NCBI GenBank assembly: GCA_963675595.2
Contig: CAXXLZ010000002.1
Coordinates: 4,224,001-4,288,000 of the forward strand
Direction: 5' to 3'
DNA length: 64,000 nt
Source of the DNA: Thermodesulfobacteriota bacterium
GTDB lineage: Bacteria > Desulfobacterota > Desulfarculia > JACQYL01
Both the position numbers and the translations under genes were made by a program. The stretch's first letter is position 1. Every line of letters begins with the position of its first letter. Below the pieces are notes generated by a model. The model saw only the letters and a program-made list of their open reading frames with translations. It made no database searches and had not been told where the DNA came from. This document shows, in pieces, positions 11,644-60,600 of the stretch.

Positions 11644-12489
11644 ATGACAAAAATTGCGGGAAACAAAGGCTCCGGCCCCCCTGGAATCGTCAAAATCCCG
11701 GCCGGCATCCGGGGACTGGATGAGGTCCTCAACGGGGGTGTTCCCAAAGGCGCAACGACGCTTCTCAGCGGCGGGCCGGGAACGGGCAAAACCATGTTAG
11801 GGCTTGAATTCCTTGTCCGGGGGGCCATGGCCGGGCATCCCGGAATCCTGTTGACCTTCGAGGAAACTGAGCTTGCTTTGAAAAACTATGCCGCCGGGTT
11901 TGGGTGGGATCTCGCCGAATTCGAATCCAAAGGGTTTCTGTCCATTGTATCGGCCCGCATCCAACCGGACGCCGTGCTTTCCGGCAATTTCGACCTGCGC
12001 GGCGTCATCGGTATCCTGCGGCAAAAGGCCGATTCCATAAAGGCCGAACGGGTGGTTGTCGATGCCCCGGACGTGTTCCTTCGCCTTCTGGGTGACATCT
12101 CCAAAGAGCGGGCAGAATTGCATCTCTTGCACGAATGGCTGCGGGAGGCCGGGATGACGGCCCTGATGACGGTCAAAAGCCGAACGGACCAAGCCTCGTC
12201 CTCGCAATACGATTTCCTCGATTACATGGCTGATTGCGTGATTCACTTGGACCAGCGGGTTTTGGAACAGGTCACCACACGACGTCTGCGGGTGACCAAG
12301 AACCCCGGCTCCGCGTACGGTCGTAATGAGTATCCGTTCGGCATCACGGACAAAGGAATCTGGATCATTCCCGTAACCCAGGCCGGCCTCGGCGAATGCC
12401 TCTCCAGCGGCGTGGATCAACTGGACGACATTCTGGGCGGATGTTACCGGCGCAACTCCTGTACATTTCCCCGCATTCACCCTGTATGA
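11644..12489 (+). pseudogene. kaiC: KaiC-like ATPase, truncated after the first RecA domain
   Basis: GIRGLDEVLNGGVP, GGPGTGKT, YMADCVIHL, RRLRVTK, NEYPFGI; the second domain breaks off after SSGVDQLDDILGG. Confidence 0.8.
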
Positions 12490-41863: not shown

Positions 41864-43910
41864 GAGGCAGGAGTAAGCAATGCGTATCTTTCAGAATAAT
41901 ACGACAGTTTTTTGGTGGGTGAGGACTTCTATAAAGCGAGATTAGTCCAGCGCGATCAACCTGTGGACACACTGTAGATAAACATTCATGCCGATCTTGT
42001 TTCCGAAAAAAGGGATAGAGAATGGCCAAGACTGGGAAAACCACTTATGATGAACTGGAAAAGCGGGTTCTGGAATTGGAGAAAGATGAAGCCGAGCGCC
42101 GGCGTGAGAACAAGTTACTACGTGAGCAGTTACTTCATCAAAGAACGCTAATGGACGCAAGTCTCGACGGCATTGCCATTATCGATCAGAATCACAAAGT
42201 CCGTCAGGCCAACAAGAGTTTTTCGCAAATGCTGGGCTACGCCGCGGAAGAGGTTCTTGGCCTCCATATATGGGATTTCGATGCCTTGATGACTGAGGCG
42301 GAAATCCGTGCCGATTTCGCGGATATTGCGCAAACCCAAACGACCTTCCAAACACGTCATCGCCGCAAGGACGGCACAGTCTACGACGCGGAGGTAACCG
42401 CTTGTGGGGTCCAATTGGGTGATGAGTCCATGGTCCTGACCGTAACCCGGGACATCAACGAGCGCAAGCGATCGGAAGAAGCGCTACGAAAGAGCGAGGC
42501 AAAATTCAAGGGCATTTTTGAGAACAAGGGAACTGCCACGGGTATCTTTGGTGAGGACAGTATAATCAGGGAATGTAACGCTGTCTTCGTCGGGTTGTGT
42601 GGATACTCGAAATCCGAAGTCATTAACAAGATGAAATGGTCGGATTTTGTTATCGAGGAAGACCTTGCAAGAATGCAGAAGTATCATGCTCAACGTTTAG
42701 GGAAAGGAGCCTCCCCCCCTACTCAATATGAATGTAGGATTATTGACAAAAAAAGCGACATTAAAAATGTGATTGTCAATATCAGTGTGGTTGATGAAGA
42801 TCGGGTCGTGTCACTCACCGACATCACCGAGCGTAAGCATGTGGAAGAAGCTTTAGGCGCGAGCGAAAAGCGTTTCAGGGACCTTGTGGAAATGCTGCCG
42901 GAAGCTGTGTTTGAGACCGATCGGAATATGAAATTGGTCTTCGCCAACCTGCATGCTTTCTCTCTTTTCGGATATTCACAACAGGATTTCGACGATGGGC
43001 TCATTGCTTTCGATATGATTGCCCCTGAAGACAGGGACTTGGCAATGACCAATCTGGCGAGGAGGTTCCACGGAAAAGATTTTGGAGCAACCGAATACCG
43101 TGCATTGAAAAAGGATGGCACTGTCTTTCCAATTCTATTACATGCAAGCCCGATTCTTCGGAATGGAATTACCGAGGGGGTCAGAGGCATCATTATAGAC
43201 ATAACCGACCGCAAGCGCGCGGAAGAAGACTTGGCCTTCAAGGAGGCACAGTATCGCGGAATATTCGAAGCGTCGGAGGATGCCTTCCTCATTTTTGACA
43301 TGGATGGCGTTGTGAAAGAAGCGAATCCTGCAGCTTGTAGCATGTACGGTTATTCACATAAAGACATCATAGGCCTGAGTGGACGGGACATAGTGCATCC
43401 CGATTACCAACACCTTTTTCTTGAATTTATTGAGAAGGCCTCTTCTGGCCGAATATTTCAAGCTGAATCCATTGATACACGAAAAAACGGAGCATTTTTT
43501 CATGTCGAAGTTAAGGGAAGCGGTCTCGAATATGATGGGGGCCCGCACCTTCTCGCGATTGTTCGGGACATCACCGAGCGCAAACGGCAGGAACAGGAGC
43601 TGCATCAAACGCGTGCCATCCTGGAGGCCGCAATCAACCAATCACCTTCGGGGATATTAATTGCCGACGCTCCTGATGCCCGTATACGTTTGGGTAACCC
43701 GGCAGCCTTCAGCATCAGAGGTGAGGTAGGCGATAAACTTACCGATATCAATGTAGAACAGCATTCCGCGAATTGGCAAACTTTTTACCCCGACGGTACC
43801 CCCTAGACATAATGGCTGCACGTGCAGGAAAGTAGGCCCGTCTCCTGCGTTGTTGGGTTATGGTGCGAGTAATCAGCACGCCCATCGAACCAACACCAAG
43901 GAGGCAGGCC

Positions 43911-45017
43911 ATGACCGATTTTATCTTTGTTGGATTGGATGTTCACCAGAAATCGATAGACGTTGCCTTGGCCGAAGGGTCCCGTGATGGAGAAGTCCGA
44001 TCTTACGGCAAGATCAACGGGGAGCCGTCGGATGTGGATCGATTGTTTCGCCGGCTGGGCTACAAGAAGGATCGGCTTCGGGTGGTCTACGAAGCCGGCC
44101 CATGCGGCTACGTTCTTTGCCGGCACCTGCATGCCCGGGGAATCCATTGCACGGTCGTGGCGCCCTCGCTGACGCCCCGACGAGCCGGCGATCGGATCAA
44201 GACGGATCGACGGGATGCGGTCACCCTGGCTCGTCTTCATCGGGCTGGAGAACTCACGGGGGTGTATGTTCCCCGTGTGGAGGACGAGGCGATACGGGAT
44301 TTGACCAGGGCCCGGGAGGATGCCAAGAGCTCGGAGCGAAAGGCCAAACAGCGGCTCAACGCCTTTTTGCTGCGCCACGGTCGGAAGTACGGCGGGCCGC
44401 GGAAGTGGAGCCGGGCCCACCGGAGGTGGCTTTCGGACCAGTCGTTTGAACACCCGGCCCAGCAGATCGTTTTTCAGGAGTATATCGACACCATTGAAGA
44501 GTGCGAGCGCCGGGTGGCGCGATTGGTGGAGCAGATTGGCGAGCAGGTGGAGCACTGGCCTATGAAACCGGTCGTGGAGGCCTTCCAATCGATGCGAGGC
44601 GTGTCGTTGATCGTGGCCGCCACTGTGGTGGCCGAAGTGGGCGACATGACGCGATTTGATGAGCCCGGGCAGTTGACGGCGTATCTGGGTTTGGTCCCCT
44701 CGGAGAGTTCCAGCGGAGGACGGCGCAAACAAGGAGGCATTACCAAGTCCGGCAACGGACATGCGCGCCGGGTATTGATCCAGGGGGCCTGGACCTATCG
44801 CTATCCGCCCCGAGTGGGCCGCAGGCTGAGGGATCGGCGGGAGGAGGCGCCGTCCGAGGTCTGCAAGATCGGCTGGAAGGCCCAGCTGCGTCTGTGCGGC
44901 CGGTACCACCGGCTGATGGCCCGGGGTAAGCCGTCGCAAGTGGCCGTCACGGCCATTGCAAGGGAGATGGCCGCCTTTCTGTGGGCGATCGCCAGAGAGG
45001 TTCCCGTTGCCGCTTAG
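43911..45017 (+). CDS. IS110-family DEDD recombinase/transposase
   Basis: VGLDVHQ, VYEAGPCG, KTDRRDA, GLVPSESSSG, ITKSGN; AAGGAGG RBS. Confidence 0.95.
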   Translation: MTDFIFVGLDVHQKSIDVALAEGSRDGEVRSYGKINGEPSDVDRLFRRLGYKKDRLRVVYEAGPCGYVLCRHLHARGIHCTVVAPSLTPRRAGDRIKTDRRDAVTLARLHRAGELTGVYVPRVEDEAIRDLTRAREDAKSSERKAKQRLNAFLLRHGRKYGGPRKWSRAHRRWLSDQSFEHPAQQIVFQEYIDTIEECERRVARLVEQIGEQVEHWPMKPVVEAFQSMRGVSLIVAATVVAEVGDMTRFDEPGQLTAYLGLVPSESSSGGRRKQGGITKSGNGHARRVLIQGAWTYRYPPRVGRRLRDRREEAPSEVCKIGWKAQLRLCGRYHRLMARGKPSQVAVTAIAREMAAFLWAIAREVPVAA

Positions 45018-45336
45018 CCTCACATCAACACCATATCGTTCGATTTGGAAGGAGGACGGCACTGTAAAAGGGAAAAACACCGGCTTCAACCTGTGAGCAG
45101 GGGCGCAACCGCGGTAAGGAGAATCCTCGTGACCTGATAGGAGATCTGGCATCTGCCGAACCCTCGTCTCTAGAAAGAGGCAGCTCCGCGACGAACCAAG
45201 TCCGGCGGTAACCAACCCGCGAATATCAGCATGATCCACCGTCGCTATGCAGGTTCCGCCTCTGTCCGCAGGTTGAAGTTCCATAAATGGTAGCCATACC
45301 CCAACGTTACAAGGGGCGGAAGAATTCTGCGCCCTA
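45018..45336 (+). ncRNA. Candidate bridge/seek RNA region
   Basis: Position expected for IS1111-type elements; contains short matches to the target site and to the circle junction (see findings). Confidence 0.5.
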
Positions 45337-47215
45337 TTGACGTGTGCAGCCATATCATCAGCCTGAAGATTTGCCTCTCTCCAGGGCCGTCCTAAGGGGC
45401 GAGGTCTCAAGGGATGTCACTGTGATTATCAGGCATGAATCCGGCGAGGAGCGTTGGGTTTCGGCGAACGCAGCCCCGATAGCCGATTCCGACGGGAGTA
45501 TTCGGGCCGGTATCGTGATCTTTCACGACATCACGGATCGTGTTCAGGCTGAAGCCGCTCTCAGGGAAAGTGAAGAGAGGTTTCGGACCCTCGTGGAAGA
45601 ATCTCCCCTAGCAATATCTTTAATAGCCAATGACGGCTGTTACAAATACGTAAACCCTCAGTTTCGGGAGACGTTCGGTTATACGATCGACGATGTCCCC
45701 ACCGGACGGGAATGGTTCAGGAAAGCCTTCCCTGACGAGACCTATCGGCGCCAAGTGGTCAAGACATGGGTCCAAGACCTGAAGCAAACCGGTATGGGAC
45801 AATCTAGACCACGTACCTACATTGTCACGTGTAAAGACGGATCCCGGAGAGAAATTTATTTCAGGCCGGTCACCATGCAGAACCTTGACCAGTTCGTGAT
45901 ATACGAGGACATCACCGAACGCAAGCGGGCCGAAGAGGAAAGGTTACGGCTTGAAGCCCAACTCCGTCAGGCGCAGAAAATGGAGGCACTCGGTACGCTG
46001 GCCGGGGGTATCGCGCATGACTTCAATAACATACTGGCGGCCATGATAGGCTACACCGAACTTGCGGTTGAAGGTCTTTCCAAAGGCTTGCCCGCAAGAG
46101 AACAACTGGCGCAAGTCTTGAAATCGGGAGATCGAGCCAAGGAATTGGTTCGCCAAATCCTGAGTTTCAGCAGAGCGACCGATCAGGAAAGGCGGCCCGC
46201 CGAAGTCCTTCCTATTGTGGAAGAAGCGCTGAAGCTGCTAAGAGCATCCATTCCCACCACCATTGATATAGAGCAGGAGGCGGAAGGGGTTTTAGGGACC
46301 GTGCTGGCGGACCCGACACAAATCCACCAACTGGTCATGAACCTGTGCACCAATGCCGCCCAAGCCATGCGAGATCGGGGGGGAGTCATGAGAGTGCGGC
46401 TTGAGAGGATCGAACTGGATGAGGATGCGGCGCGCAAATATGTCGAGTTAAGCCCGGGAGCGTATTTAAAGCTGAGCGTTACCGACACTGGAGAGGGTAT
46501 CGAGGAAAGCATACTGGATCGCATATTCGAGCCGTTTTTCACGACCAAAGAAACCGGACAAGGCACGGGTATGGGCCTTGCAGTAGTTCATGGGATCGTG
46601 AAAGCTCACTGCGGAAGCATAGAGGTGCAAAACAGGGCCGGTCGCGGCTGTACATTCTACGTTTACCTGCCGCTTTTTGAAAGCGAGGCGGAAAAGAGTG
46701 ATCCGCCGGAAACGATTCGTATCATAGCCGGCACTGGACATATCCTTTTCGTAGACGATGAAGAGTCCATAGCAGACTTGGGGAGGCAGATGTTGGAGCG
46801 ATTGGGCTACAAGGTCACCGCTTGCACCTCAAGTCGCCAGGCATTGGAAACGTTCAAAATCGACCCCACCCAGTTTGATATCGTGATCTCTGACCAGACC
46901 ATGCCACAAATGACCGGTTTGAGACTAGCCGGGGAGTTGATGAGCATAAAGCCGAATATACCTATTATCATCTGTACGGGTTACAGCACGGATATATCAC
47001 CCGAAAAAGCACAGGAATTCGGCGTTAGGCACGTCATAATGAAGCCCTATGCGTTCTGCGAGGTCGCCGCTTTGATCAGGAAAGTGATCGATGATAAGTC
47101 AGCAGGTTTTCCTTGAGCACGCGGATGAGGGACTAGGCTACATCCTCCCTTGCCCTCCGACTCTCGGACGAAAGAATAAGAACTCTCGTTTCCAGGAAAC
47201 CGATCACCTTAACCG

Positions 47216-47638
47216 TCAGAAGAAACCAAACAGCCCCCGGTCCTTCTTCTCCTGCATCGCGCCTCTGCGCTCTCTGGCCGACGCCGCGATGCCGGATAGC
47301 TGTTCCAATGACTTCCCGAACCTGCTCGAAAAGACCCAGCCTTCCCGGTAACCGTACCGCTTGTTGAAGCGGGAAACGTGGTCGATGAGCCCCATTCGCC
47401 GCATCTTGCTTCGGACGGTTTCGAGGATTCTCGGTGAGAAATCGTATTTGCCGCACAAAGGCTGAAGAGTGTTCAAGAATTCATGTTCAGCGTACTTGAG
47501 TTCGATGAAGATTGCGAGAAAAACTCGCTGATGGTTCTTGTTGGCTGGGAATAGGATAGCCGCGAGTTCATCCAGGTCCCGAGTCCTCGCGATCTTGTTA
47601 TGGCTGAGTTCGATTTTTGTGTTGACGATTGCGATCAC
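47216..47638 (-). CDS. Hypothetical protein, probable winged helix
   Basis: ETVRSKMRRMGLIDHVSRF...GWVFS pattern; overlaps the stop codon of the upstream gene. Start uncertain. Confidence 0.7.
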   Translation of the reverse strand: MIAIVNTKIELSHNKIARTRDLDELAAILFPANKNHQRVFLAIFIELKYAEHEFLNTLQPLCGKYDFSPRILETVRSKMRRMGLIDHVSRFNKRYGYREGWVFSSRFGKSLEQLSGIAASARERRGAMQEKKDRGLFGFF

Positions 47639-48006
47639 CTCGACCGGGCCAGGTGCTGGAGAACGACCGGCTTACCGTAACCATTCTCTTTCAGGGCTTT
47701 CTTCCTCAGTTCGACTCGTTGTTTTGCGATCTCAAGAGCCATCGTCCTGAGTTCTGTCCCCAATAGGCTCTCCACCCAATAGATGGTGGTGTATGCAGAA
47801 ACGTAGATATCTCCCAGAAGCCGTTGGAACCGCCACCTGATTCCCTGGCGGGAGAGTCCGAAGATCCGCTCAATCTTGTCGCCGTAATTTCTGCGCAAAA
47901 CGAACCGCTTCAGGCCGTCTTCCTTCAGCTCAATCTTGAGATCACTATCTTCGATCAACATCTTGAGCTTTTCAATAAATTCCTTGTCCTTTTCAGTCAG
48001 TTTCAT
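47635..48006 (-). CDS. Hypothetical protein, possible HTH
   Basis: KIERIFGLSRQGIRWRFQRL; overlaps both neighbouring genes. Confidence 0.7.
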   Translation of the reverse strand: MKLTEKDKEFIEKLKMLIEDSDLKIELKEDGLKRFVLRRNYGDKIERIFGLSRQGIRWRFQRLLGDIYVSAYTTIYWVESLLGTELRTMALEIAKQRVELRKKALKENGYGKPVVLQHLARSR

Positions 48007-48808
48007 AATAGGGCGGCTCGATTTCGATATCCGAGCCGTATTGTGTCACCTGCACTTCGCAATCCTGAAGCAGGAAAATCAGAGCCACAAATCGCATCGC
48101 CCGATCTCTCCGGGCATTATCGATCAGGGGGTCAATCCTGGAAAACATGATTTGTCGATACCTATGAACCGAATCCAGGATATGGCGTCTGTACCGGGAC
48201 AGCCCAGGAAGATTCCCAGTCAGGGAGAACTCCTCGCCCCAAACTCCCGCGTCAAAACCCATGAAACCCGACAATGCTTCAGTAAACCCGGGCAAACGAT
48301 CAAGCCGTGGTTCCTCCAGTAACGCCAACCCGCCCGACCGCCCTTCTCGACGGGCGAGCCTCATCATCTCTCTTCGCCTTCTTGCCTTGGCTCTCGATTC
48401 AGCCATTCGTTGCCGGAAATAAACCTTGTCGAAGACCCGTTCATCGAACAAGAACCGGGACGGCACGGTCTTCCCACAAGAAGCGCACGCATAATGAAGA
48501 CTCCGCCTGACCAGCTTCGCTCCGCAACAGCCGCTCCTTTGAAACACCACTGTGGGGTCCAGTTCATGGTCGCTCACACAGGCCGCCGAACCGGGTTCAA
48601 GCATCCGCAGGTTTTCGCCGCAAACAGGACACGGATGATTCGCCAGCATAACGTCATAGTAGTAGTCTCGGGCCGACGCCTTGTATTGAGCAACGCCGAA
48701 AACAAACTCCCCGATAATCCGGCCGAGGGCTTCCTCCGGCTCTTCCATGTCCAAAATTATCGCTGGGCGTTCGCTGTAGTGATCCGGCTCCAGGGTTTCG
48801 CATTCCAT
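47993..48808 (-). CDS. Zn-ribbon protein with ScpA/kleisin-like C-terminal winged helix
   Basis: CPVC, CVSDH, SGCCG, CASC; C-terminus RRDRAMRFVALIFLLQDCEVQVTQYGSDIEI. Confidence 0.65.
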   Translation of the reverse strand: MECETLEPDHYSERPAIILDMEEPEEALGRIIGEFVFGVAQYKASARDYYYDVMLANHPCPVCGENLRMLEPGSAACVSDHELDPTVVFQRSGCCGAKLVRRSLHYACASCGKTVPSRFLFDERVFDKVYFRQRMAESRAKARRRREMMRLARREGRSGGLALLEEPRLDRLPGFTEALSGFMGFDAGVWGEEFSLTGNLPGLSRYRRHILDSVHRYRQIMFSRIDPLIDNARRDRAMRFVALIFLLQDCEVQVTQYGSDIEIEPPYYETD

Positions 48809-48830
48809 CTATCGCGGAAAGCAAAGCATT

Positions 48831-48880
48831 GATATAAACCTTTCGCTCCCACGCCGCAGAATTCGGAAAAGTTTATATAC
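48831..48880. promoter_or_regulatory. Back-to-back archaeal-type BRE+TATA-like motifs
   Basis: Minus 48845-48831 CGAAAGG-TTTATATC with ATG 22 nt downstream; plus 48864-48880 CGGAAAAG-TTTATATAC. Confidence 0.55.
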
Positions 48881-48913
48881 ACCAGGGCCTTACCGAGTCC
48901 CGAGGTGATACCG

Positions 48914-49060
48914 ATGCCAAGACCCTATAAGTGCCCATATTGCGGCGCAACCCAAAGCCACTGGAAAGGATACAGGCCCCTTGCCCAGGGAAAAGTCAGA
49001 CTCCGGATGTGCACCAAGTGCCACCGGAAGTTCACGACTCGGGTTAAGATCGCCGAATAA
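48914..49060 (+). CDS. 48-aa zinc-ribbon protein (below the ORF-track cutoff)
   Basis: MPRPYKCPYCGATQSHWKGYRPLAQGKVRLRMCTKCHRKFTTRVKIAE; GAGGTGAT RBS at 48902-48909. Confidence 0.75.
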   Translation: MPRPYKCPYCGATQSHWKGYRPLAQGKVRLRMCTKCHRKFTTRVKIAE

Positions 49061-49075
49061 CCACCCGACGGACCT

Positions 49076-50350
49076 TCAATGAAGACCGCCGAACGACCCG
49101 GCACCAAATCCTTCTCTTGACAAGAACCGGCTGAGGGTTTCCTTGGGAAGCGATCTCGATATTTCTCTTGTCTGGCCGTACCTGCCGCGTGATATCAGCC
49201 TGGCGTTGATCAGTCCGTAGAGGTCAAGGGAACCGATAATGTCCGAGAACCTTCGTTGCGTCAGCGGCCTGACCCGTTCCAACTCGCAGAAATTGGCGTA
49301 TCGATCATAGGCCTCGCCTGTAGTGACCCGTTTCGAAGTCTTGGCCAACAGATCGTAGCAGGAAAGAAGCGCAAGTTTCTGCTGCGGCGCGAGAGCCCGA
49401 ACCATTTCTTCGGTCTTGTCCATCTCCAATCTGTGCTCAGCCAGATCCACGATTTCTTCGGACAGCCTGCCGCCGGTTTCCTGTGCCACTTTGGCCGACT
49501 TTGATAGAAGTTCCACCGCCTTCCTCGCATCACCGGTTTCCCGCGACGCCAGGGCCGCGATCTTTCGAACAGCAGCTTCGTCCACCTTTGACTTGTCCAA
49601 CGCCTTTTCCACCCGAAGATTCAGAATTTCGATCAAATCCAAGGCGTTATAGGGTTCAAAGAGCATGTCCGTCTTCTTGAGAACGCTCAGAATACGCGGA
49701 TCCAGCATCTTGTCCCAGTTCAGTTTGTTCGTGACCATAATGAGAACCAACCGGCAGGGAATCTTTCTCGGAAGGGTCTTTCCGAGGAAGGTAATAAACT
49801 CGTCCGCATTGGGCTTGATGTTATCCGCCTCATCAATCAGGAGGCACAAGAAACCCTGAAATCGGTTCAGCTCTTCGATGATGCGTTCCTGCATCTGATC
49901 AATGGGAATGCCTTTCCTGTAAGTACGAATCGATTCATTGAGTGCTCTTGCAAGTTCATTCAACGCTCCGAAAGAGGACCTGGGCGAGGTCAAGTCCACG
50001 TATCTGTACTGAAACCCGACGGACTGCGTTCGGCAATATTCCTGGAACGTCGAAAGGACGTGAATGAGGGAAACCGTTTTCCCTGAACCCGTAGGCCCGA
50101 AGATCAGCAGAGAACTCGGATGATCGCCGTCCAGGATCGGAGTCAGATGACAGACGATGCGCTTAAGCTGCTCCTCCCTGATATTCCGATCAAAAATCTC
50201 CTTCAGAACCGAAGTTCGCTCTTCCTCTGGCAACTTCTCGTCGTCCAGATAGTTGGGGTTCAAAATAAGGCGATGATTCTTCTGTGAGTCATGCAATGTG
50301 CGGATGAATTGCAAGGAAGCTTCGGAATGATCTCCACCGGACATTTTCAA
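49076..50350 (-). CDS. cdc6: Orc1/Cdc6-family replication initiator (AAA+ plus winged helix)
   Basis: Walker A GPTGSGKT, Walker B LLIDEAD, LDPRILS, FEPYNA, GDARKAVELL; C-terminal TTGEAYDRY...LTQRRFSDIIGSLDLYGLINARLISRGRYGQTREI. Confidence 0.9.
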   Translation of the reverse strand: MKMSGGDHSEASLQFIRTLHDSQKNHRLILNPNYLDDEKLPEEERTSVLKEIFDRNIREEQLKRIVCHLTPILDGDHPSSLLIFGPTGSGKTVSLIHVLSTFQEYCRTQSVGFQYRYVDLTSPRSSFGALNELARALNESIRTYRKGIPIDQMQERIIEELNRFQGFLCLLIDEADNIKPNADEFITFLGKTLPRKIPCRLVLIMVTNKLNWDKMLDPRILSVLKKTDMLFEPYNALDLIEILNLRVEKALDKSKVDEAAVRKIAALASRETGDARKAVELLSKSAKVAQETGGRLSEEIVDLAEHRLEMDKTEEMVRALAPQQKLALLSCYDLLAKTSKRVTTGEAYDRYANFCELERVRPLTQRRFSDIIGSLDLYGLINARLISRGRYGQTREISRSLPKETLSRFLSREGFGAGSFGGLH

Positions 50351-50370
50351 GCGATTCTTCTACAGGACAT

Positions 50371-50387
50371 CTATAAATAGTTTTCGG
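50371..50387 (-). promoter_or_regulatory. Archaeal-type BRE+TATA-like motif CCGAAAACTATTTATAG upstream of cdc6
   Basis: 16-mer identical to 9612-9627; 21-27 nt before the candidate starts. Confidence 0.55.
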
Positions 50388-50427
50388 TTAAATGCATTGT
50401 CGTCACCTGACAGTGAACCGGATGTTA

Positions 50428-50650
50428 AGTGTGGGAAAGTTTCTCGTGGAACTTTCAGTTTCAGTTTTTAGTGATGTTTTCTTTTCCTTATTATTATTTA
50501 TTTCTATATAGAAACTATATAATATAATATAAAAGCCGCGAAAATATAGAAAAGTTTTTAAATGAAAACACTTCAGAATAGTAACAAGAAACAAAAATAA
50601 CACACCCAACAAAAGGTTTTCAAGTTTTCCACGCGACATTTACACACACT
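50428..50650. other. Putative replication origin: AT-rich core flanked by inverted ORB-like boxes
   Basis: 24-bp imperfect inverted repeat (19/24 identical) at 50428-50451 and 50627-50650 around a very AT-rich 175-bp core, directly upstream of cdc6. Confidence 0.65.
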
Positions 50651-50861
50651 CTAAAAGCTGATTTTGAATCACTATTGAGTGACAACGTGGAGGCCATGAC
50701 GTCCCTCAAAGACCTCGATCACCGACGGTATTTCAAGAAAACCCGAAACAATCGGCCATTCGACAGTACAAGAGCCACGTTTCCACCGGAAATTTACTCG
50801 GGTTCCTGAAGCCATTCGGCGTCAATCCCTCCATTCCTCTGAGGAAATTTCCCATACCAAC

Positions 50862-51365
50862 CTACATCTCGTCCCAGCCGATATACTGAGCCGGACTTTC
50901 CCCCACCCTTTCGACGATCTTGGGATATTTTTCTCCCGGAGCCGCTTTTCCGATCTCGATCACCCGGATTTCGTGCCACCAATCATCTCCGAAATCGAAC
51001 CAATAGAAGAAGTGATCGCCCTCTTTCAGGTTCAGAGAGCCGATCTTGGTTCTTGAAACGTCTCCTGCAGGCGGAGGAGTTCCCATCAGGTCTCCCTCCA
51101 TTTCGATGGGCAGCACATACCTCGCCGCCTCGGGATCCTGCGGTATTTTGGAGAGCTGAAACTCGTAGAGGTGCTCGTCTTCACGATCAAAGGCTCTGAA
51201 GATCGCCCGGTGAAGCTGCCCCAGGGTATGCTTGCCTCGAACTTGAATGACACGGAATACCGCCGGGTTCTTTGCGATGAAGGTCTTGCTCATGGGTCCG
51301 TTTGCAATGGAGACCTTTAAAGCGTACAGATTTTCCGCCCGCTTTCCTCCGGAACTCGTCGCCAT
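50862..51365 (-). CDS. Plasmid pRiA4b ORF-3 family protein
   Basis: TLGQLHRAIFRAFD...HLYEF...FYWFDFGDDWWHEI...YPKIVERVGESPAQY. Confidence 0.85.
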   Translation of the reverse strand: MATSSGGKRAENLYALKVSIANGPMSKTFIAKNPAVFRVIQVRGKHTLGQLHRAIFRAFDREDEHLYEFQLSKIPQDPEAARYVLPIEMEGDLMGTPPPAGDVSRTKIGSLNLKEGDHFFYWFDFGDDWWHEIRVIEIGKAAPGEKYPKIVERVGESPAQYIGWDEM

Positions 51366-51465
51366 TCACTTCCTCCTTGGTGATCCGAACATCAAAAAAC
51401 TTATAAAGGAATGAACTTACCGGTATCCAACGGAATCGGCAAGAACCGATTCGGAGGTGCACACC

Positions 51466-51909
51466 ATGGCAATGGAAACAAATTCGGCCACATCCGGCAC
51501 ACCATCAAGCGGCTGTCCCACTTGGGACGGAATGGGCATATCCGGCGATCTGCCGCCCTTTTTCAAGCCCACCGAAGACATGAAACGAAACGGCTTCGAA
51601 GTGATCTTTCTGTCCGACGGTCCCAGGAGAGAGACCGAGAACAACTTCGACAAGAACTCGAAAGACCTCTGGTTCGATATCTCCTACCAGGACAAGGAAA
51701 TGACCTGGACCATCAGCCAGATCAGCCTGCTTTCCGAACTGAAGAAGCATTCACCGCTGAAGGAGAAGATCCTCAGGATACGCCTTGTTCCGGTGACCGA
51801 AGAATTCAGGAAAAAGCGGCCGAAGTACAGAGGCAGTGAGCGATACCAGGTTGAAGAAATCCGAGAAAACCGATTCGACAAGATCGACGTGGAAGAACTG
51901 ACGGTATAG
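51466..51909 (+). CDS. Hypothetical protein, possibly an OB-fold ssDNA-binding protein
   Basis: GGAGGTG RBS; beta-rich aromatic core (LWFDISY, MTWTISQ) and acidic tail; upstream CAAAAAA-CTTATAAAG. The ORF is well supported; the fold is speculative. Confidence 0.65.
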   Translation: MAMETNSATSGTPSSGCPTWDGMGISGDLPPFFKPTEDMKRNGFEVIFLSDGPRRETENNFDKNSKDLWFDISYQDKEMTWTISQISLLSELKKHSPLKEKILRIRLVPVTEEFRKKRPKYRGSERYQVEEIRENRFDKIDVEELTV

Positions 51910-52048: not shown

Positions 52049-52744
52049 TCAGCCCAAGGTCGTGAGACCATGGAGGATCGCGTATTTGGTCAACTGGGAC
52101 ATTCGCCTGGTTTTCAGCTTCTTCACAATATTCCTGCGGTGATTTTCCACCGTATTCACGCTGACACAGAGTATGGCCGCCATCTCCGCACTGGTCTTCC
52201 CCTCGGTCATACCCTGGAGAACTTCCTTTTCTCTCGAGGTCAACGAAGGAAGCGACCGGTGTCCGTTTCCATTGCCTAGCGCAAGCGCTTGAAACGCCTC
52301 AGTCATCGTTTCAGCGGATTTGCGGCAAAGATACATCCGGCCTTCGAGCACCGAACGAACAGCCGCGACCAGCTCATGCAATCCGCTTTGACTGAGCACA
52401 TACCCCATGGCCCCAGCGACGAGCATTTTGAACATGGGGTCCCATTCCGAATCCGGCGCGACTCCGACCACCCGGGTTTTTCGAAACCGATGCGTGATTT
52501 GGCGCGCGGTCTCGATACCGTTCAAACCCTTCATGGAAGTGTTCACGATCACCACGTCCGAGGGCGTATTGGACAGCAGTTTAAGTGCTTCATGACCTTC
52601 CAAAGCTTCACCCGAAACCTCGAAATCAGGAACAGAGCCCATCGCGTGCCGCAATCCTTCGAGAACCATCCTGTGGTTGTCCACCAGGAATATCCGCTTT
52701 TTCTCGAGTTCTTCCCTTGCTCCGCCTTGCCCCGGTTGCTCCAT
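52049..52744 (-). CDS. NarL/LuxR-family response regulator with atypical receiver
   Basis: LuxR HTH LTSREKEVLQ...VSVNTVENHRRNIVKKL; receiver has VDNH, IVNTSM, YVLSQ. Confidence 0.88.
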   Translation of the reverse strand: MEQPGQGGAREELEKKRIFLVDNHRMVLEGLRHAMGSVPDFEVSGEALEGHEALKLLSNTPSDVVIVNTSMKGLNGIETARQITHRFRKTRVVGVAPDSEWDPMFKMLVAGAMGYVLSQSGLHELVAAVRSVLEGRMYLCRKSAETMTEAFQALALGNGNGHRSLPSLTSREKEVLQGMTEGKTSAEMAAILCVSVNTVENHRRNIVKKLKTRRMSQLTKYAILHGLTTLG

Positions 52745-53417
52745 GATCACCCTCCGTAACAGACGATCCATTGTTCAATCGGAAATCCGGCAGAAGATAC
52801 CGAGACCTCCCGAAAGCAAAATGTTGGATTCAGAGAAAAAGCATCCTATAAAAAGATGAAACCGTGCGCAATCGTGATAATCATGAGGTTTTCTCATGAA
52901 ATTCATGAGTTAAATCTGTGGAAATCGCTAGACCAGCTAATGGATTTTATGATATGGAGCAGCGAAAAAAGAGGGGTGCAGGGCGGCCATCGGGTCAACC
53001 CATTACGATCTTTAGACTTTTGGGCGGGCATAGTCTCCGGAGAATGATAACACGGCCGTTACAACGTCGGACATGGACACGACGCGTGGGAAGAACAATC
53101 AAGATCCCTGCAGCGGGGGGATGAAAGCCGAGTCAATCGCAGGGAAATAGTTGATAGCCGCTCAAACCGTCCTATGAATGCAAACACCACCTTCGCCGTG
53201 GACATCTCCGCCGAAAGTGGATTCCGGTGTCGCGAGACTCTGAGACCGGCAGGTGCCCGGGACTACCCTCCGGTGAGCCTGTGCAAGGGAAGCTTCGAGC
53301 CTGCGAACGTGATCAATGACAGACCGCCAACGATCGGTCGGAACATTGGGCGGGTTCGGCGTTTTCGGGGGCGAGATGAAAGGCCTCTTCGCCCGTCTCC
53401 CTAAAGCCCGTTCCGCC

Positions 53418-54366: not shown

Positions 54367-54797
54367 ATCTTCATTTCCTTCCAGCCAAAATTCCCACAAG
54401 CCCTGTCGCGGAATAGCTTCGCTTTCGAGACGTCTCGTATCAGCTTCCCTGTCCTTGTTAATCGAGCCGTACCTGAAGAAACCGGTCGGTCGTCCACCGC
54501 AAAATGGTCAAGGTGTATAACGATCTCAGCGGCGTTGAAAAAAGGCGGCATTCGCGGGATATTGGGGGTGCTCAGGAAAACTTCGAACCTTCAAGCCAAC
54601 ACAAGCCTGCCGACTGCCGTCATAAAGGCCCCGCAGAGCCCCTGTTTGAGAAAGATGCCGCATAATATCGGAGGACCCAAGTTGAAGCTTTTCGTAATGG
54701 CTTACAAACCCATCGCTCTAGTCAATGACACTGATGATATACTGACAAAGTCGTATAACCTTTTTTCATCGGATAGGTAGCATTAAGGAGAATAAAA

Positions 54798-55685
54798 GTG
54801 TCCCTATTCACCATACTCAATAATATAGTCAATCACCCTTTTAACAAATACAATAAGGCTGCGGCGATAGCCATATTTGTAGGTTGGCAAATCGGTAGCA
54901 GATTAGTTCCAGGTGATGTTATTTTTGAATGGGTAAATAATTCCAAACTTGTGGCCAGAACAGGTGAAATTGTTGTTACCGGTAATATTTACTGTGGTCT
55001 TCTTGAATTTCAAGATATGGGTTTCTTGCTTCACGTTTTGAGAGAAAGAGATATTTTTGTTGATATTGGAGCTAATGTTGGAGCCTACACTATTCTGGCA
55101 AGTGCAGCTATTGGTGCAAGCTCCTATTGCTTTGAACCAGTCCCATCAACATACCGTAGGCTAATGACAAATATTAGGCTAAACGCATTAGATAAAAAAG
55201 TTATTTCATTAAATATGGCACTTGGAAATGCAAGAAAACAATTGCTATTTTCTTCAGATGAAAGTGGCACCAGCCATGTCTTGGCAGATAATGAGAAAAC
55301 TAAGAACGAAATTACTGTAAATTGTTCCACTCTTGATGAGGAGCTGAAAGGTGACCCATTTCTAATAAAGATTGATGTGGAAGGATATGAAACTCCAGTA
55401 CTGGAAGGTGCACAACATTCACTTAAGAATCCCAATCTTTGTGGAGTGATTATTGAATTGAACGATTCAGGACAAAGATACGGTTTTGATGAACAAACGA
55501 TATTGCAAATGATGTTTGATCATGGATTTAAAACCTATTCATATTGTCCTTTTGAAAGAAAGCTAAGAATTTTGGGAGGTAAGAACGAATATGAAGGGAA
55601 TACAATTTTTGTAAAGAATATCGATCGCGTCCTAAATAGAATCAATAAAGCTCCAAAGTTTGCTGTTCATGGGGTGTCAATATAG
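54798..55685 (+). CDS. FkbM-family SAM-dependent methyltransferase (AT-rich cargo)
   Basis: FVDIGANVGAYT, FEPVP, LIKIDVEGYE. Confidence 0.9.
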   Translation: MSLFTILNNIVNHPFNKYNKAAAIAIFVGWQIGSRLVPGDVIFEWVNNSKLVARTGEIVVTGNIYCGLLEFQDMGFLLHVLRERDIFVDIGANVGAYTILASAAIGASSYCFEPVPSTYRRLMTNIRLNALDKKVISLNMALGNARKQLLFSSDESGTSHVLADNEKTKNEITVNCSTLDEELKGDPFLIKIDVEGYETPVLEGAQHSLKNPNLCGVIIELNDSGQRYGFDEQTILQMMFDHGFKTYSYCPFERKLRILGGKNEYEGNTIFVKNIDRVLNRINKAPKFAVHGVSI

Positions 55686-55807
55686 GTGGATGCATAATCA
55701 AATTAGCTCTACCAGGACTTTAAGGCTTTACGAAGAGGGCAGTGCTCAACTTTAAATCGTGCCGCCCGGTAATTACGGGACGTCGACCATTCCTCCTCCG
55801 ACGACAA

Positions 55808-56072: not shown

Positions 56073-56945
56073 TCAATCCAGAACGATCTTTCTCCGCGGC
56101 TGGTTTATCAGTTCCCGCACTTGGTCATGCACGGAAGCCATCGCTTCGCGAATCCGGTTCTTGAGGTAACCGCTTTCGCGAATGGACTCGGGCGACCTTC
56201 CGTCGAGCACCGACTCCGCCTGCTGCACGAGTTCCGCCAAGCCATTGTCGTCAAAGACGTTTCTTTGCTTGAAGTGTTCGAAGAACTCGTAGAAGTTCGT
56301 CACCGTCGTTCCTTTGAACTTCTTTGCTTCACCGTCCGGCCCGATACTGAAGCGCTCGCAGATATGCCCGACAAGGTCAGCGAACTCCTCTCGAAGACTC
56401 TGCACGGCAAGCTCACGAGCCTCTTCCATGGTTTGGATGAATTTTCGCTTTTCGCGCTCATACACTTCCGGCGCCAGGAGACCGAACCTGCCGTTGGGGA
56501 CATCAAGAGCCACAAACCGCCACTCGAATGAAAACCGCCTATGAATATCCACGGGGTAGTCCTGCTCATTGAACAGGTCACCGAGGTAGGCAATGGCAGA
56601 GTCCCTGAGCGCCGGATATCGTGAAGCAAAATCGTTGACGAGGTAGCCGAACTCAGATTGAAGCTCCCGCAACTTCTCGTCCACCTCAGTAATCAAGTCT
56701 TTCGGCACGAACATCATGCCGTGGATGGGAAAGGGCAGACTGACCGATGTGAGGTAGAGCCGGGAATTGCCGGCCAACTTCGCAATGGGTTTCAGGCTTT
56801 CCGGGTCCACGAGCTTTTTCGTTGCATGAAGCCATTCGTGGTTGCTGGTCATTTGAGCGAGTTTTCCCTGATCGATCTTTCTTCTCGCTCCCCACATGCT
56901 GATGGAGAGTTGCACCAGGCATCCTTTTTCGAAAATGTTTTCCAT
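56073..56945 (-). CDS. DUF3150-like protein
   Basis: LVQLSISMWGARRK...ATKKLVDP...SLPFPIHG; GAAAGGAG RBS. Confidence 0.72.
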   Translation of the reverse strand: MENIFEKGCLVQLSISMWGARRKIDQGKLAQMTSNHEWLHATKKLVDPESLKPIAKLAGNSRLYLTSVSLPFPIHGMMFVPKDLITEVDEKLRELQSEFGYLVNDFASRYPALRDSAIAYLGDLFNEQDYPVDIHRRFSFEWRFVALDVPNGRFGLLAPEVYEREKRKFIQTMEEARELAVQSLREEFADLVGHICERFSIGPDGEAKKFKGTTVTNFYEFFEHFKQRNVFDDNGLAELVQQAESVLDGRSPESIRESGYLKNRIREAMASVHDQVRELINQPRRKIVLD

Positions 56946-57037: not shown

Positions 57038-57238
57038 TCAGCCGCAAAGAGGCAGATACTTCTTAACCGACTCCTTCTCCTCCTGGTAATAGGCCGGTGT
57101 AAGTTCCCGCAAAGTTTCCGCTCCGAGAACCTCTTTCAGGAATTTCGATTCCTCGATACAAGCCTTGCCCTTGAACCCTCTGGTTTCGAGCTTGATCTCG
57201 CCATCCATGGATACTTCCACAATGATTTCCTTCATCAC
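57038..57238 (-). CDS. DUF2997-family protein
   Basis: IIVEVSMDGEIKLETRGFKGKAC...LTPAYYQ. Confidence 0.8.
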   Translation of the reverse strand: MMKEIIVEVSMDGEIKLETRGFKGKACIEESKFLKEVLGAETLRELTPAYYQEEKESVKKYLPLCG

Positions 57239-57244
57239 AGCCTC

Positions 57245-57616
57245 CTACATCCGGACGTGGAGCCGGATTGCATTTTCGGTTTTCTTTTCGATCACCGTGT
57301 AGCCTTTACGCCGCGCTTCGGTCCGGGTCTTCTCCACCGCATAGGCCTGCTTCAACAGTCCTCCGTTTACGCCGATTGCTTTTTCCACGTTAGGGTCGTA
57401 GAAGTCGCACTGAAGTTCATACCTGTCATCCATCCTCTGAACGCCGATTTCATAATCCGCACCGGGCAATCGAATGGCATGCTCGCACGCGGCGTTGTTT
57501 CCGTACCACCGGAACTCTTTCCTGCCTTCGAGGAAAATCAGACCCAGCCGATTACACGCAGACTTCAGGACAGCGAGGTCCTTTACTTCGAGTTCGATTT
57601 TGACGATATGACTCAT
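57245..57616 (-). CDS. DUF1257 (Ycf35-like) protein
   Basis: MSHIVKIELEVKDLAVLKSACNRLG...YEIGV...LLKQAYA...GYTV. Confidence 0.8.
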   Translation of the reverse strand: MSHIVKIELEVKDLAVLKSACNRLGLIFLEGRKEFRWYGNNAACEHAIRLPGADYEIGVQRMDDRYELQCDFYDPNVEKAIGVNGGLLKQAYAVEKTRTEARRKGYTVIEKKTENAIRLHVRM

Positions 57617-60600
57617 CGTATCCTCCGGATCGTTCTGATAGGTTCTTCGTCCCTTCGGCTCGCTCTCCTCGCCCGATTCTCAGCCCAATCCCGGAGCGCT
57701 GAGAGCTGCTCCTTCATGGTTTTGGAAAGCGGAACAATGGTTTCACGGGCGTTTTCCAGGCCATCGAACAGCGAATCCTTGGCCAGCTGCTCGATCTCAG
57801 CGCCTGTCCATTCAGTGAGTTCAGCTGCATACTCGGAAGGTATTTCCGAACCGTATCGTTGATTCATGATTTCGATGATGGCTTCGCGCTCGCTTCTGTT
57901 CGGGATATCCACAAAGAACAGGGCATCAAACCTCCCCGATCGCAGAAACTCAGGCGGAAGCCCCGAGATATCATTGGCGGTTGCCATGACCAGAATCGGA
58001 CTGGTAGTCTCTTGAAGCCACAAGAGCAGATGGCCGAACATGGACGAGGTGGTACCGCCGTCCGTCGCCCCCGAACTTTTGACCCCGGACAGCACGTAGG
58101 GTAGGCAGCGGCCCTCCTGCAGAAGCAGGCTAAGCCGCCACCCCCCTCCGAACCGTACGTGCGGCTTTCACCGCATACGGCTCTCTACTTACACTTACCT
58201 GGAAATCTCAGGTCAGGCAGAGTCCCGTCATGGAGTTGCCGATGGCAGTGAACGCACAAGACCAGGGTTTTCCGATTGCGTTCACGCATCAGCTCTTTCC
58301 ATGGTTCGTTGCCATCAGCAACGGCACTCATACTCCCGGCGTGGTGCACCTCAAAGTAGCCGCCTGCACGCCCGCAGAACTCGCATTTCTGAGCCCTCAA
58401 ACGAGAAAGGATATCAGAGTACGTGGCCCGATACTTCTTTGTATTGGGTACACTGTCGAGATTCTGCAACAGGGAAGAGCGGTAAAATTTGAGGTCCTTC
58501 AACCTGAAGAGCCGAGTGGTGCGTAATTTCCCATGGTACCATTCGGTAATAGCGTATTCCCCCGGTTCAACCTTCAGACGCCTCCTCACTGTTCTCTTGC
58601 TGCAGCGGTGTTTTCGGGCAAATGTTCTCGTCAAACTTCGGAACCAGACGGACTGCAGTTTCTGCAATGCCCGAACTGCCCCTTGAGCGAGAACATAGTA
58701 ATTGGCAAAGCCCCTCAACTCCGCGTTGTAAATCGTGAGGATTTGTGTATCCATTAGGTTGACCAAGTTAAGTCGGGGCATGACTTCAAAGTTCTCATAG
58801 TTGCCATATCCGTTCTTCTTGCAGAACGCCGCCATCTTATCGCTTGGGACTTTAAGCTGGATTCGACCAGCCCCAAGCCTCCTGGTCGTGTAGGTCCCGC
58901 CAAGTTTTACCTTGACCGATTTTCCCACCGGGTAGGTTGTGATGTCATACCCGAGGAAGCGCGTTTCCTCAGTACAATGACGGAGGCCTGATTTCTCTTC
59001 GGAGATCTGCAGGCGCAAATGTTCTTGGACAAAACCACGAACAGTCTGCATGACCTGCCTGCAATCCTCCTTGGAGCCGATCATGCCGATGAGAAAATCA
59101 TCGGCGTACCGGATATACATCAGTCTCTTGTAACCTTCGTCATGGAAATCCAAGGAAGGGACTAAACGTCGCATCCTGCAATGTTCCCGAAGTTCGGCTT
59201 CTATTTCTTTGAGCTTTTCGGTCTCCCCAGCCTGCTGAGCCCGGGCGAACCTTATCCTTTGACGACGGACCAGATACTGATAGCGGAGATACTCTTCGTT
59301 CCGGCGTCTTCGCTTTCCCTTGTTGAATTCCTGAACCAGACTTTCCATGAACTCGTCGAGCTCATGAAGGTAAATATTGGCTAGGATCGGGGAAATAATT
59401 CCACCTTGAGGAGTTCCACTATACGTGGCATGGTATTTCCAATCATCAATATAGCCGGCCTTAAGCATGGCCTTGATGAGATTGATGAAACGCCTGTCGT
59501 CAATCCGTTTCTCCAACAGTCTTATCAACACCTTATGGTCGATATTGTCGAAGAAACCCCGGATATCCATGTCGATGATCCACTTAACGCCGGTCCAGTA
59601 TTTCTGAAGATACCGCAAAGCGGTATGACACGATCTTTCCGGACGAAATCCATGCGAGCGATCAGAAAAGATCGGCTCGTAGATTCGTTCCAGAATCGCT
59701 CGTGTCACTTCCTGGATCAGCTTGTCATCTCCGGAAGGTATGCCCAAGGGTCGCAACTTACCGTTGGCCTTGGGGATGTAAACGCGTTTTGATGGTTTGA
59801 ACTTGTAACGACCGTCTTTGAGCAGCTTAATAATGTTCTTTGCCCGCTCATCGGAAAAGCCGTCCAGGGTCACGCCGTCCACGCCCTTCGTCATAGCACC
59901 TTTGTTTGAATAGATATTGGCGTAGGCGTCTTCCCATAAAGTCGGGTTTTCCATGAGCCGAAATAGGCCGTTAACACGTTTCCCCTGCTTGGAGAGTTTT
60001 CCAAGAGCGTTCAACCTCTTGATGGTCGTAGCGGACAGCATCAGCACATCCTCCTTTCAGAGTGTTGAACACGTTGCATAAGCTGTCTTCCTTCCCCCGG
60101 ATAGAGGACCCTTCGTCGATGTCGCCACCGACTTATAGCCATATCCGTATCCCGCAATTGCGAGATCTGCAGAACCCATTACAGGCCCACCTTGGGTACT
60201 ATGAAGACTCCGTCGCCATACAGGTCCGAGCCGTGTGCTCGTGACCAGCTTAGGCGATCCCGCATTTACGCCAGATCAAAGATTCGCCGTGGTTAGGTCT
60301 CCCGTTCGTCCCTTTTATCCTTCTCGTCGAAGGCATGCCGGACAGACGGAATATGCAGGTCGAAAAGTGGGCCTACATACAGTCCGGACTGGCGTTTCAG
60401 CTACTTTCACCAGTGCCCGAGCTACGGCCATGAGGACTGGGGTTCAAGCAGTTTAGCCTTGACCATACACGGCTTACGCTGACATCATCGTTGGTCGTAG
60501 CTACCTTCTTTGATGCCTTTTCCCAACATGCTGCACTCCCCCCTCCCTTTCGGGACAAGGACCATTGCTGGTCAGAGATAAGTTGGGTGCGTACAGGATA

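Follow-up and report, generated by a model that had tools for sequence, protein, structure and literature searches.

The stretch analysed here, a 64,000-nt window from the genome of a Thermodesulfobacteriota bacterium (positions 4,224,001 to 4,288,000 of contig CAXXLZ010000002.1, hereafter C2; the genome comprises 6.79 Mb in 3 contigs, 98% complete, 56% GC), carries a gene for an Orc1/Cdc6-family protein, orc1. Orc1/Cdc6 together with origin recognition boxes (ORBs) marks the start of replication in archaea, as ORC/Cdc6 does in eukaryotes; bacteria use DnaA and DnaB. Directly upstream of orc1, at 50331-50801, ORB-like repeats surround a tract of 20% GC, and downstream of it lies a trio of small genes, g271, g123 and g140, that travels with it. 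Gene, repeats and trio belong to a core of ~27 kb that is present in four copies in the genome at 90-97% identity (blastn), one in each of four islands (A to D; A is that of the window) lying at tRNA genes.

Pfam, NCBIfam, PADLOC and PHROGs were the profile libraries scanned for the proteins of the window, in sets that differ from protein to protein. Orc1 scores 257.4 bits against TIGR02928, the NCBIfam model for 'orc1/cdc6 family replication initiation protein' (cut-off 181.3), and, in Pfam, 86.1 bits against Cdc6_C (cut-off 25.1), 46.9 bits against Cdc6_lid (cut-off 27) and 50 bits against AAA_22. It aligns from residue 58 to ~410 with 2qby_A (S. solfataricus Orc1-1, 181 bits) and also with 2v1u_A (A. 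pernix ORC1, 178.6 bits), both of them Orc1 structures solved on origin DNA, and a winged-helix stretch, RGRYGxTxEI, falls inside these alignments. Four motifs are invariant among 20 aligned homologues: GPTGSGKT, D173-E174 (DEAD), N208 and G273-D274-A275-R276 (GDAR), of which we take the first, second and last to be Walker A, Walker B and sensor 2. Because family scores, full-length alignments to known structures and invariant motifs agree, the protein is, on sequence grounds, a true and complete Orc1/Cdc6 and no generic AAA ATPase. The archaeal ORC1 equivalog models are not reached (best NF001625, 248.5 bits against a cut-off of 501); judged by these scores, the protein is a member of the TIGR02928 family and no equivalog of the archaeal ORC1-type proteins modelled by NF001625 and its relatives. 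An earlier note, made from the letters of the window alone, had described an intact 424-aa Orc1/Cdc6 with Walker A/B, GDAR and a winged-helix tail, and the profile search and the invariant motifs agree with it; the generic bacterial AAA ATPase lacking Cdc6_C that it had set out as the contrary case does not fit the Cdc6_C score.

The open frame begins at a TTG, and the likely start is the ATG at 50344 (MSGGD), which is kept in relatives in an alignment of upstream regions. All four orc1 copies of the genome have open frames and score 253-258 bits against TIGR02928. Three pairwise comparisons of copy A with copies B-D (Nei-Gojobori) give pN 0.006, pS 0.224 and dN/dS 0.03, the lowest ratio among all core genes: purifying selection on orc1 is strong.

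The upstream repeats are ~21 nt long, with a consensus of about TTCCAYMGGAMATYTWCYC and a core of TTCCA-NN-GGAA. Two of them, a and b, face each other across the AT-rich tract, a third (c) covers the start codon, and the fourth (d) lies outermost (Table 1); in copies B and D, repeat a carries the exact palindrome TTCCACCGGAAA. A 14-nt pattern derived from the repeats themselves, TCCASSGGAMATTT, has three matches in the 64-kb window when at most one mismatch is allowed, against 0.28 expected (0/100 shuffles), and all three fall within 50333-50795. The tract between repeats a and b is extreme in composition: it holds the 120-nt window of lowest GC in islands A (0.19) and B (0.17) and the third-lowest in island C (0.21), and in island D the lowest such window (0.20) lies just across an inserted insertion sequence (IS). 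Across the 6.8-Mb genome just 15 sampled windows have a GC of 0.20 or less (4.4e-5 of those sampled); island A as a whole stands at 52% GC, the genome at 56%.

In archaea, an origin is defined as an ORB-flanked AT-rich region beside an initiator gene (PMC4010727, accessible part), and the Pyrococcus ORB and mini-ORB, ...TTTCATTTCCACTGGAAC... and TTCCAGTGGAACT, have 'TTCC' and 'GAA' perfectly conserved (PMC1904270, accessible part); their core is the same as that of the repeats here. The present region has the architecture of an archaeal-type origin in each respect: a candidate unwinding tract, inverted TTCC...GAA repeats and an adjoining initiator gene. The earlier note had pointed to an origin-like region beside the gene, and its repeats and tract can now be placed. 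The same note's sigma70 promoter finds no support: sigma-70-like sites in 48700-51500 number one, against 2.2 expected.

This arrangement recurs in relatives. Those with an Orc1 58-64% identical to that of the window, namely a Desulfatiglandales metagenome-assembled chromosome, NaphS2, Desulfopila, Desulfosarcina variabilis and contigs of genomes G067 and G306, repeat one three-block upstream layout, with an inverted repeat at about -255 to -290, a direct one at about -100 and an inverted one on the start codon. The spacer between the first two blocks is AT-rich in an alignment of seven upstream regions, and over its 150-190 nt length and composition are conserved and sequence is not. In the window and in relatives the repeats lie between -450 and +10 relative to orc1. 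Exact matches to TTCCANNGGA[AC] number 36 in 9,722 nt of upstream windows (-500 to +30 of 19 orc1 loci, counting the four copies of this genome and two duplicate pairs), against 3 in the other 148,793 nt of the same loci; at least one occurs in 17 of the 19 and at least three in 8. In Desulfosarcina locus L016 an ORB-like site also lies ~160 nt upstream of the trio operon.

The trio itself is DNA-binding in appearance. In the model of g271 (pLDDT 81) two long helices stand on either side of a Cys-rich ribbon, six cysteines of which (C60, C63, C77, C95, C108 and C111) are invariant, and the C-terminus folds as a winged helix. The model of g140 (pLDDT 72.5) matches AbfR2 best (E 8e-4), then PadR and TFE-type proteins. 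The Zn-ribbon and winged-helix neighbours named in the earlier note are thus both present, g271 being modelled with both features and g140 with a winged helix. Neither g140 nor g271 has a match in Pfam, NCBIfam, PADLOC or PHROGs; for g123 the same four libraries are empty and the protein atlas gives no usable match. A prediction of an Orc1 and g271 complex scored 0.00, which is no verdict and evidence neither way. The whole trio stands beside orc1 in four of the eight bacterial-clade loci searched (L012, L013, L016 and L021), g140 alone of the three does so on the short contig L019, and g271 also adjoins orc1 in L025 and L028; none of the three was found in L017, in L020 or in L014, where just 776 nt of contig remain past orc1. 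A specific assignment of g271 as a kleisin was tried and rejected: its best Foldseek rows are winged helices from the C-termini of Scc1 and ScpA at E 7e-3, with none at 0.001 or below, ScpA clusters in the protein atlas reach 0.75-0.78, under the 0.9 line, and in VIA-align over 48,161 chains many unrelated winged helices tied or did better (Z 9.2 versus 8.3).

The islands (75-130 kb, one core each) share a single layout. From the tRNA gene one passes a tyrosine integrase reading toward it, a shared 2-4 kb, variable cargo and then the core, beyond which the sequence varies again, is shared once more over a short segment and closes with a direct repeat, perfect in each island, of the tRNA 3' end. 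The integrases of the four islands are 44-77% identical and lie 15-53 kb from orc1, 41 kb in island A. The core begins near the left end of g140 and ends at about window-equivalent 74064-74435; the far repeat of island A, at window-equivalent 81481-81528 and so outside the window, is the second att site of the integration at tRNA-Phe that the earlier note had proposed. That note's family of tRNA-integrated elements with conserved accessory genes is likewise seen, in the four islands here and, by synteny, in relatives from other Thermodesulfobacteriota. A chimeric assembly is very unlikely: each of the four copies has a tRNA gene and its own repeat, homologues occur in complete chromosomes, and contigs of two sequencing runs (X1 and X2, probably from the source sample and not independent) are exact across the left junction of the core, 46340-47263. 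In a contig from another study (X3) the similarity begins at 47208.

Table 1. Features of the window, its island and the related islands. Positions are those of the window unless prefixed by a contig (C1 and C2 are contigs of this genome).
Feature	Position	Strand	Remarks
Island A, tRNA-Phe	48-nt repeat at C2:4305481-4305528		75.6 kb
Island B, tRNA-Arg(tcg)			48-nt repeat; 91.8 kb
Island C, tRNA-Val			45-nt repeat; 130 kb
Island D, tRNA-Arg(acg)			49-nt repeat; 93.5 kb
tRNA-Phe(GAA), attL side of island A	5880-5955	plus	3' 48 nt recur perfectly
Tyrosine integrase, split	6002-8768	minus	C-terminal part 6002-6421, N-terminal part 7995-8768
IS splitting the island A integrase	6477-8030		~1.55 kb; 503-aa open reading frame (ORF), no Pfam match
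Integrase-proximal backbone	8470-12461		common to other islands
390-aa ORF, membrane/coiled-coil-looking	9651-10823		in integrase-proximal backbone
KaiC-like ATPase	11632-12489		truncated here; 491 aa in island B
Variable cargo of island A	12502-47116		CheB-CheR-PAS fusion, MCP, five large PAS/GAF hybrid histidine kinases
CheB-CheR-PAS fusion	12502-15831		before the kinase run
MCP	17118-19112		before the kinase run
IS110-family copy (DEDD_Tnp_IS110 + Transposase_20)	43803-45365		between two kinase genes
Core left border	47208-47228		homology among the four copies begins (blastn)
Core copy A (this window)	C2:4271208-4298435
Core copy	C1:1418348-1444496
Core copy	C2:903715-927179
Core copy	C2:1658055-1628647		reversed
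g140	47216-47638	minus	winged helix and long C-terminal helix; dN/dS 0.13
g123	47635-48006	minus	small conserved protein, no known family; dN/dS 0.14
g271	47993-48808	minus	long helix, Cys-rich Zn-ribbon, C-terminal winged helix
orc1/cdc6	49076-50350	minus	open 424-codon frame, first codon TTG at 50350
ORB-like repeat c	50331-50351	plus	TCCACCGGACATTT at 50333-50346, over orc1 start ATG 50344
ORB-like repeat a	50432-50452	minus	GTTCCACGAGAAACTTTCCCA; orc1-proximal flank of AT-rich tract
AT-rich tract, candidate unwinding element	50455-50625		GC 20% in 50500-50599
ORB-like repeat b	50626-50647	plus	inverted to repeat a across the tract
ORB-like repeat d	50779-50801	plus	palindromic core TTCCACCGGAAA
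PRiA4_ORF3-family protein	50862-51365	minus	absent from copy D
Conserved 150-aa ORF (g150)	51457-51909	plus	no known family; dN/dS 0.08
LuxR/NarL-type response regulator	52049-52771	minus	in copies A, B and C
DUF3150 protein	56073-56945	minus	dN/dS 0.07
DUF2997 protein	57038-57238	minus	profile match
DUF1257 protein	57245-57616	minus	profile match
Classic AAA ATPase gene	57613-64000	minus	exons 57613-58095 and 63194-64141; interrupted by group II intron
Group II intron, tandem duplicate	58092-60656 and 60653-63217		620-aa reverse transcriptase/maturase/HNH ORF

Proteins of this kind are widespread. A word-indexed search with the window's Orc1 scored 8,000 candidates and gave 470 proteins at E of 0.001 or less, of which the best 120 are 58-93% identical, and the few named relatives among the best matches belong to Thermodesulfobacteriota or to strain NaphS2; NCBI labels the bacterial relatives 'Cdc6/Cdc18 family' or 'orc1/cdc6 family'. 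Homologues number in the thousands, metagenomes included, and some lie in complete chromosomes (L012, L016). Among 401 genomes sampled across the phylum, four, this one being one of them, match TIGR02928 over its cut-off, and those with an Orc1 of the bacterial type carry two to four copies each. One match that looks unlike the bacterial clade, in G007:C158 (L024), reaches 395 bits on a 1.5-kb contig, against ~250 bits in the bacterial clade, and may be archaeal DNA binned into a bacterial metagenome-assembled genome.

A quick maximum-likelihood tree, unrooted and of 127 rows, bears on the question of phylogeny that the earlier note had raised: the window's Orc1 lies in a bacterial clade of 24 rows (SH-aLRT 98, stem 0.5). 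This clade holds the window protein, nine proteins listed by the search, seven named bacterial loci (six of Thermodesulfobacteriota type, one from Hydrogenedentes) and seven unnamed representatives. Just two of the other 102 rows are named, Acidilobus and Woesearchaeota, so that neither root nor donor lineage can be stated. The clade is 31-36% identical to named archaeal proteins, and a deeper member, P0124, 42% identical, heads a second large subfamily whose named members are Thermodesulfobacteriota and Syntrophales. From these divergences the bacterial clade is old and diversified, with at least two subfamilies, and an archaeal source for it is plausible. As the clade is large and old, a recent transfer from archaea is not shown. 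Where the earlier note had suggested integrative elements that moved from archaea to bacteria, the element family stands and the move is not shown, its Orc1 belonging to a separate, deep bacterial clade.

The replication machinery of the host is of the bacterial kind, with two DnaA-family matches and one DnaB, the DnaB being chromosomal. VirB4 (PF03135) and VirD4 (PF02534) have no match in the genome, relaxase families being outside this search; no gene for virion formation or packaging was recognised, and no relative is present in IMG/VR. For these reasons the element is, as far as its genes can be read, no recognisable conjugative element or provirus.

The best explanation of the region, and one to which we give roughly even credence, is that it is the replicator-initiator module of a family of tRNA-integrating islands in Thermodesulfobacteriota-type bacteria. 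It commends itself because an Orc1, cognate repeats, an extreme AT tract and the joint conservation of the three are what an origin needs. Orc1 would bind the ~21-nt ORB-like repeats flanking the ~170-nt AT-rich tract, and the repeat over the orc1 start codon would allow autoregulation. Once the tyrosine integrase had excised the island, the Orc1-ORB complex would melt the AT-rich tract and host proteins would replicate the circular form. With no MCM present, either host DnaB or some unrecognised protein of the element would have to serve as helicase; g271, g123 and g140, DNA-binding in type, probably act with Orc1. The wider proposition is rather more tentative, and we lean slightly away from it: that widespread bacterial integrative elements replicate from an archaeal-type origin, where Orc1 opens an AT-rich element without MCM and the melted origin passes to the DnaB system or to an unrecognised partner such as the trio, a natural pairing of initiator and helicase across domains.

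Several observations weigh against a replicator. The absence of MCM from this genome means that the usual client of Orc1 is missing: PF00493 gives just 21-36-bit cross-matches, none in the four islands (PF00493 also gave matches in each of the 14 control genomes, bacteria among them), and the MCM that the earlier note thought might lie beyond 64 kb is found neither there nor elsewhere in the genome. PLSDB has no record of the bacterial clade: all 415 matching plasmid records are below 60% identity, the 40 of them listed being archaeal at 26-31%, so that no autonomous bacterial replicon depending on the clade is on record. The material consists of assembled contigs only, with no experimental or read-level sign of excision, of a circular form or of extra copies. 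In the window's own island an IS breaks the integrase, in island D a copy of this IS sits in the AT-rich tract 36 nt past the orc1-proximal repeat, and two of the four elements, A and D, are thus probably crippled. Nor is the repeat pattern uniform: loci L017, L020, L026 and L030 show one exact ORB each, L031 (= L018) has none in its upstream window, and L017 lacks a clear AT-rich tract. Finally, repeats upstream of and over a start codon also fit a pure operator.

That last point leads to the strongest rival, which we consider possible and distinctly less probable than the replicator: Orc1 would be a regulator like Orf8 of SNJ2, sensing for example DNA damage and switching the island between quiescence and excision through g271, g123 and g140, with the ORB-like repeats as operators and the AT-rich tract as promoter DNA. 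In the haloarchaeal provirus SNJ2 an Orc1 homologue is a DNA-damage-activated regulator that works with a winged helix-turn-helix repressor and a third protein, and provirus Orc1/Cdc6, repressor and third small protein form a conserved module controlling integrase expression (PMC10123103, accessible part). Here, too, three small genes are conserved along with orc1, and two of them have winged-helix models; one repeat overlaps the orc1 start codon, the L016 site stands upstream of the trio operon, and the genome offers no cognate helicase. Yet the integrase is tens of kilobases from orc1 in all four islands, no virion genes were seen, IMG/VR has no relative, and the inverted repeats bracket an extreme AT tract of conserved length for which an operator has no need. 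The roles of initiator and regulator are not exclusive and could coexist.

A role in defence or conflict is improbable; Orc1 and its neighbours would form a system borne as island cargo, in which Orc1 is an ATP-dependent DNA sensor that works with a HerA-like ATPase and a Cas4-like nuclease. It draws on a HerA/DUF87-like ATPase and a Cas4-like PD-(D/E)XK nuclease in the core, which give weak PADLOC matches (mad8 43, HerA 34 and Cas4 33 bits) and are both kept near orc1 in L016, together with two genes of no known function. Orc1 itself is marginal in PADLOC (mad8, 21 bits, P-loop part alone), the ATPase and nuclease lie 17-19 kb from orc1 and do not adjoin it in L012 or L013, and the cognate repeats and AT-rich tract would be left unexplained. 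That the module is an inert relic, or a product of assembly or contamination, is very improbable and largely refuted: the broken integrase of copy A, the split tract of copy D and the unusual G007 match could be cited for it, but a dN/dS of 0.03, intact frames in all four copies, thousands of homologues including complete chromosomes, perfect att repeats and exact contigs across 46340-47263 speak otherwise.

Set beside known systems, the replicator reading finds its closest likeness in archaeal Orc1-ORB pairs. Shared with these are the AAA+ module, lid and Cdc6_C winged helix, the initiator beside an AT-rich tract, the inverted repeats with core TTCCA-NN-GGAA (PMC1904270 and PMC4010727, accessible parts) and carriage on an integrated mobile element, as in pairs that chromosomes acquired from integrated extrachromosomal elements (PMC4010727, accessible part). 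The host here is by contrast a bacterium, which has DnaA and DnaB but lacks MCM, the protein belongs to its own deep bacterial clade, and the repeat ends in YTWCYC where that of Pyrococcus ends in a string of G (PMC1904270, accessible part). The SNJ2-type module of betapleolipoviruses likewise places an Orc1/Cdc6 on an integrated element with small winged-helix-type proteins (PMC10123103, accessible part); the present element has no virus context, a distant integrase and a clear ORB/AT-rich architecture, and the likeness of its trio to Orf4 and Orf7 is one of winged-helix type. Iteron-plasmid Rep initiators resemble it in that they, too, belong to a bacterial host and recognise repeats next to an AT-rich region through winged helices, and a relationship of the Rep WH1 domain to the Orc1/Cdc6 winged helix has been proposed (bioRxiv 10.1101/2024.09.03.610885, accessible part). 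Rep, however, is without the AAA+ module, whereas a complete Orc1/Cdc6 is found here.

Phage-inducible chromosomal islands and replicating integrative and conjugative elements likewise combine a terminal integrase and attachment repeats with an initiator gene placed beside a repeat-bearing origin, from which they replicate once excised; their initiators are of bacterial or phage type (helicase-primase, relaxase). The present islands differ in having an Orc1/Cdc6 protein, no VirB4/VirD4 and no recognised virion or packaging genes.

Our searches of the open-access literature, supplements apart, turned up no account of integrative elements on which a bacterial Orc1 is accompanied by ORB-type repeats, though one may exist elsewhere. 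A table row in PMC5701242 names a 'Cdc6-like protein' in Desulfovibrio, PMC13236601 mentions an 'Orc1-like AAA+ domain' in an unrelated NLR-like protein, and the accessible part of PMC3914693 contains nothing on bacterial Orc1. Already known are the database annotation of such bacterial proteins as Cdc6/Orc1 family and the archaeal Orc1-ORB module of integrated elements; new here is that module, on integrated elements, in bacteria without MCM.

Some further features of the region deserve record. Beside the ORB-like repeats stands a second dyad, of TCAC-N6-GTGA type, at 50403-50418 and ~50569-50585, which recurs in relatives (columns 125-140 and 316-330 of the upstream alignment) and could be a site for another protein, for example a winged-helix neighbour. 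In contigs of runs X1 and X2, 50535 is followed at once by 51433; the 897 nt left out hold the PRiA4_ORF3 gene and repeats b and d, and the junction resembles the layout of copy D minus its IS. The frame at 50403-50639 was rejected as a gene, with a dN/dS of 1.1 and stops in other copies; overlapping alternative frames in the core have ratios above 1. In all four core copies the PD-(D/E)XK nuclease gene contains an ORB-like site, GAGTTCCACAGGAAATCCACCCTG (L005:5418, window-equivalent 69418; C1:1438770; C2:921819; C2:1635285); this site was rejected as part of the origin, not being found in that gene in Desulfosarcina L016.

Among the other core genes, the DUF3150, DUF2997, DUF1257 and AAA neighbours listed in the earlier note all have profile matches, as does PRiA4_ORF3, and the rest of the core also encodes DUF2958, RadC and, as the HerA/DUF87-like ATPase, a protein of 678 aa. 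No match was found for g150 in Pfam, NCBIfam, PADLOC or PHROGs, for g184 in Pfam, PADLOC or PHROGs, for g390 in Pfam or PADLOC, or for g217 in PHROGs or Pfam. All four core copies have their AAA ATPase gene split by a group II intron (Rfam RF00029 at 58096-58185 and 60657-60746), which in A, and there alone, forms a tandem duplicate (99.96% identity). Across the four copies the intron sequence is 99.9-100% identical, with flanks at 93-97%, which suggests recent homing or conversion between them. An insert of low GC (31-40%) at 54700-55700, with an FkbM-type methyltransferase (54798-55685), occurs just in core copies A and B, which also have in common a 370-nt core end with a Cys-containing 105-aa ORF; copies C and D have an extra 1.5 kb there (L009:6366-7876, that is C2:927366-928876, and the matching part of D) with a 223-aa ORF of no known family and a gene of the nucleoside 2-deoxyribosyltransferase family. 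Unique to copy A is a 272-aa ORF (L005:6988-7806) without a Pfam match, whose end, a hydrophobic stretch followed by RRRR, resembles a PEP-CTERM-type sorting signal.

In the cargo of island A the very large PAS/GAF hybrid histidine kinases of 20885-47116 measure 1682, 1513, 1870, 1140, 594 and 590 aa. The IS110-family element between two of their genes has five further copies on C2 at 98-99.9% identity, and the IS with the 503-aa ORF recurs at C2:1653244-1654798 and C2:1622052-1623601, the copy in the AT-rich tract of island D being 99.9% identical. A ~1.3-kb repeat at C2:4345582-4346879, presumably an IS, is found in more than 30 other places on all three contigs at 99-100% identity, one copy standing at the very end of C2.

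What the islands present is a complete Orc1 with its cognate origin architecture, kept under strong selection on mobile elements of bacteria that have no MCM. If the origin fires, they would offer a natural system for studying how an Orc1-type initiator might work with a bacterial helicase and replisome, and would bear on how replication machineries are exchanged or replaced between domains; if Orc1 is instead a regulator, its non-replicative role on mobile elements would extend from archaeal viruses to bacteria. Either way, orc1, the ORB repeats and the three accessory genes together form a new and readily recognised set of markers, by which a large class of genomic islands can be picked out in sulfate-reducing and syntrophic bacteria.

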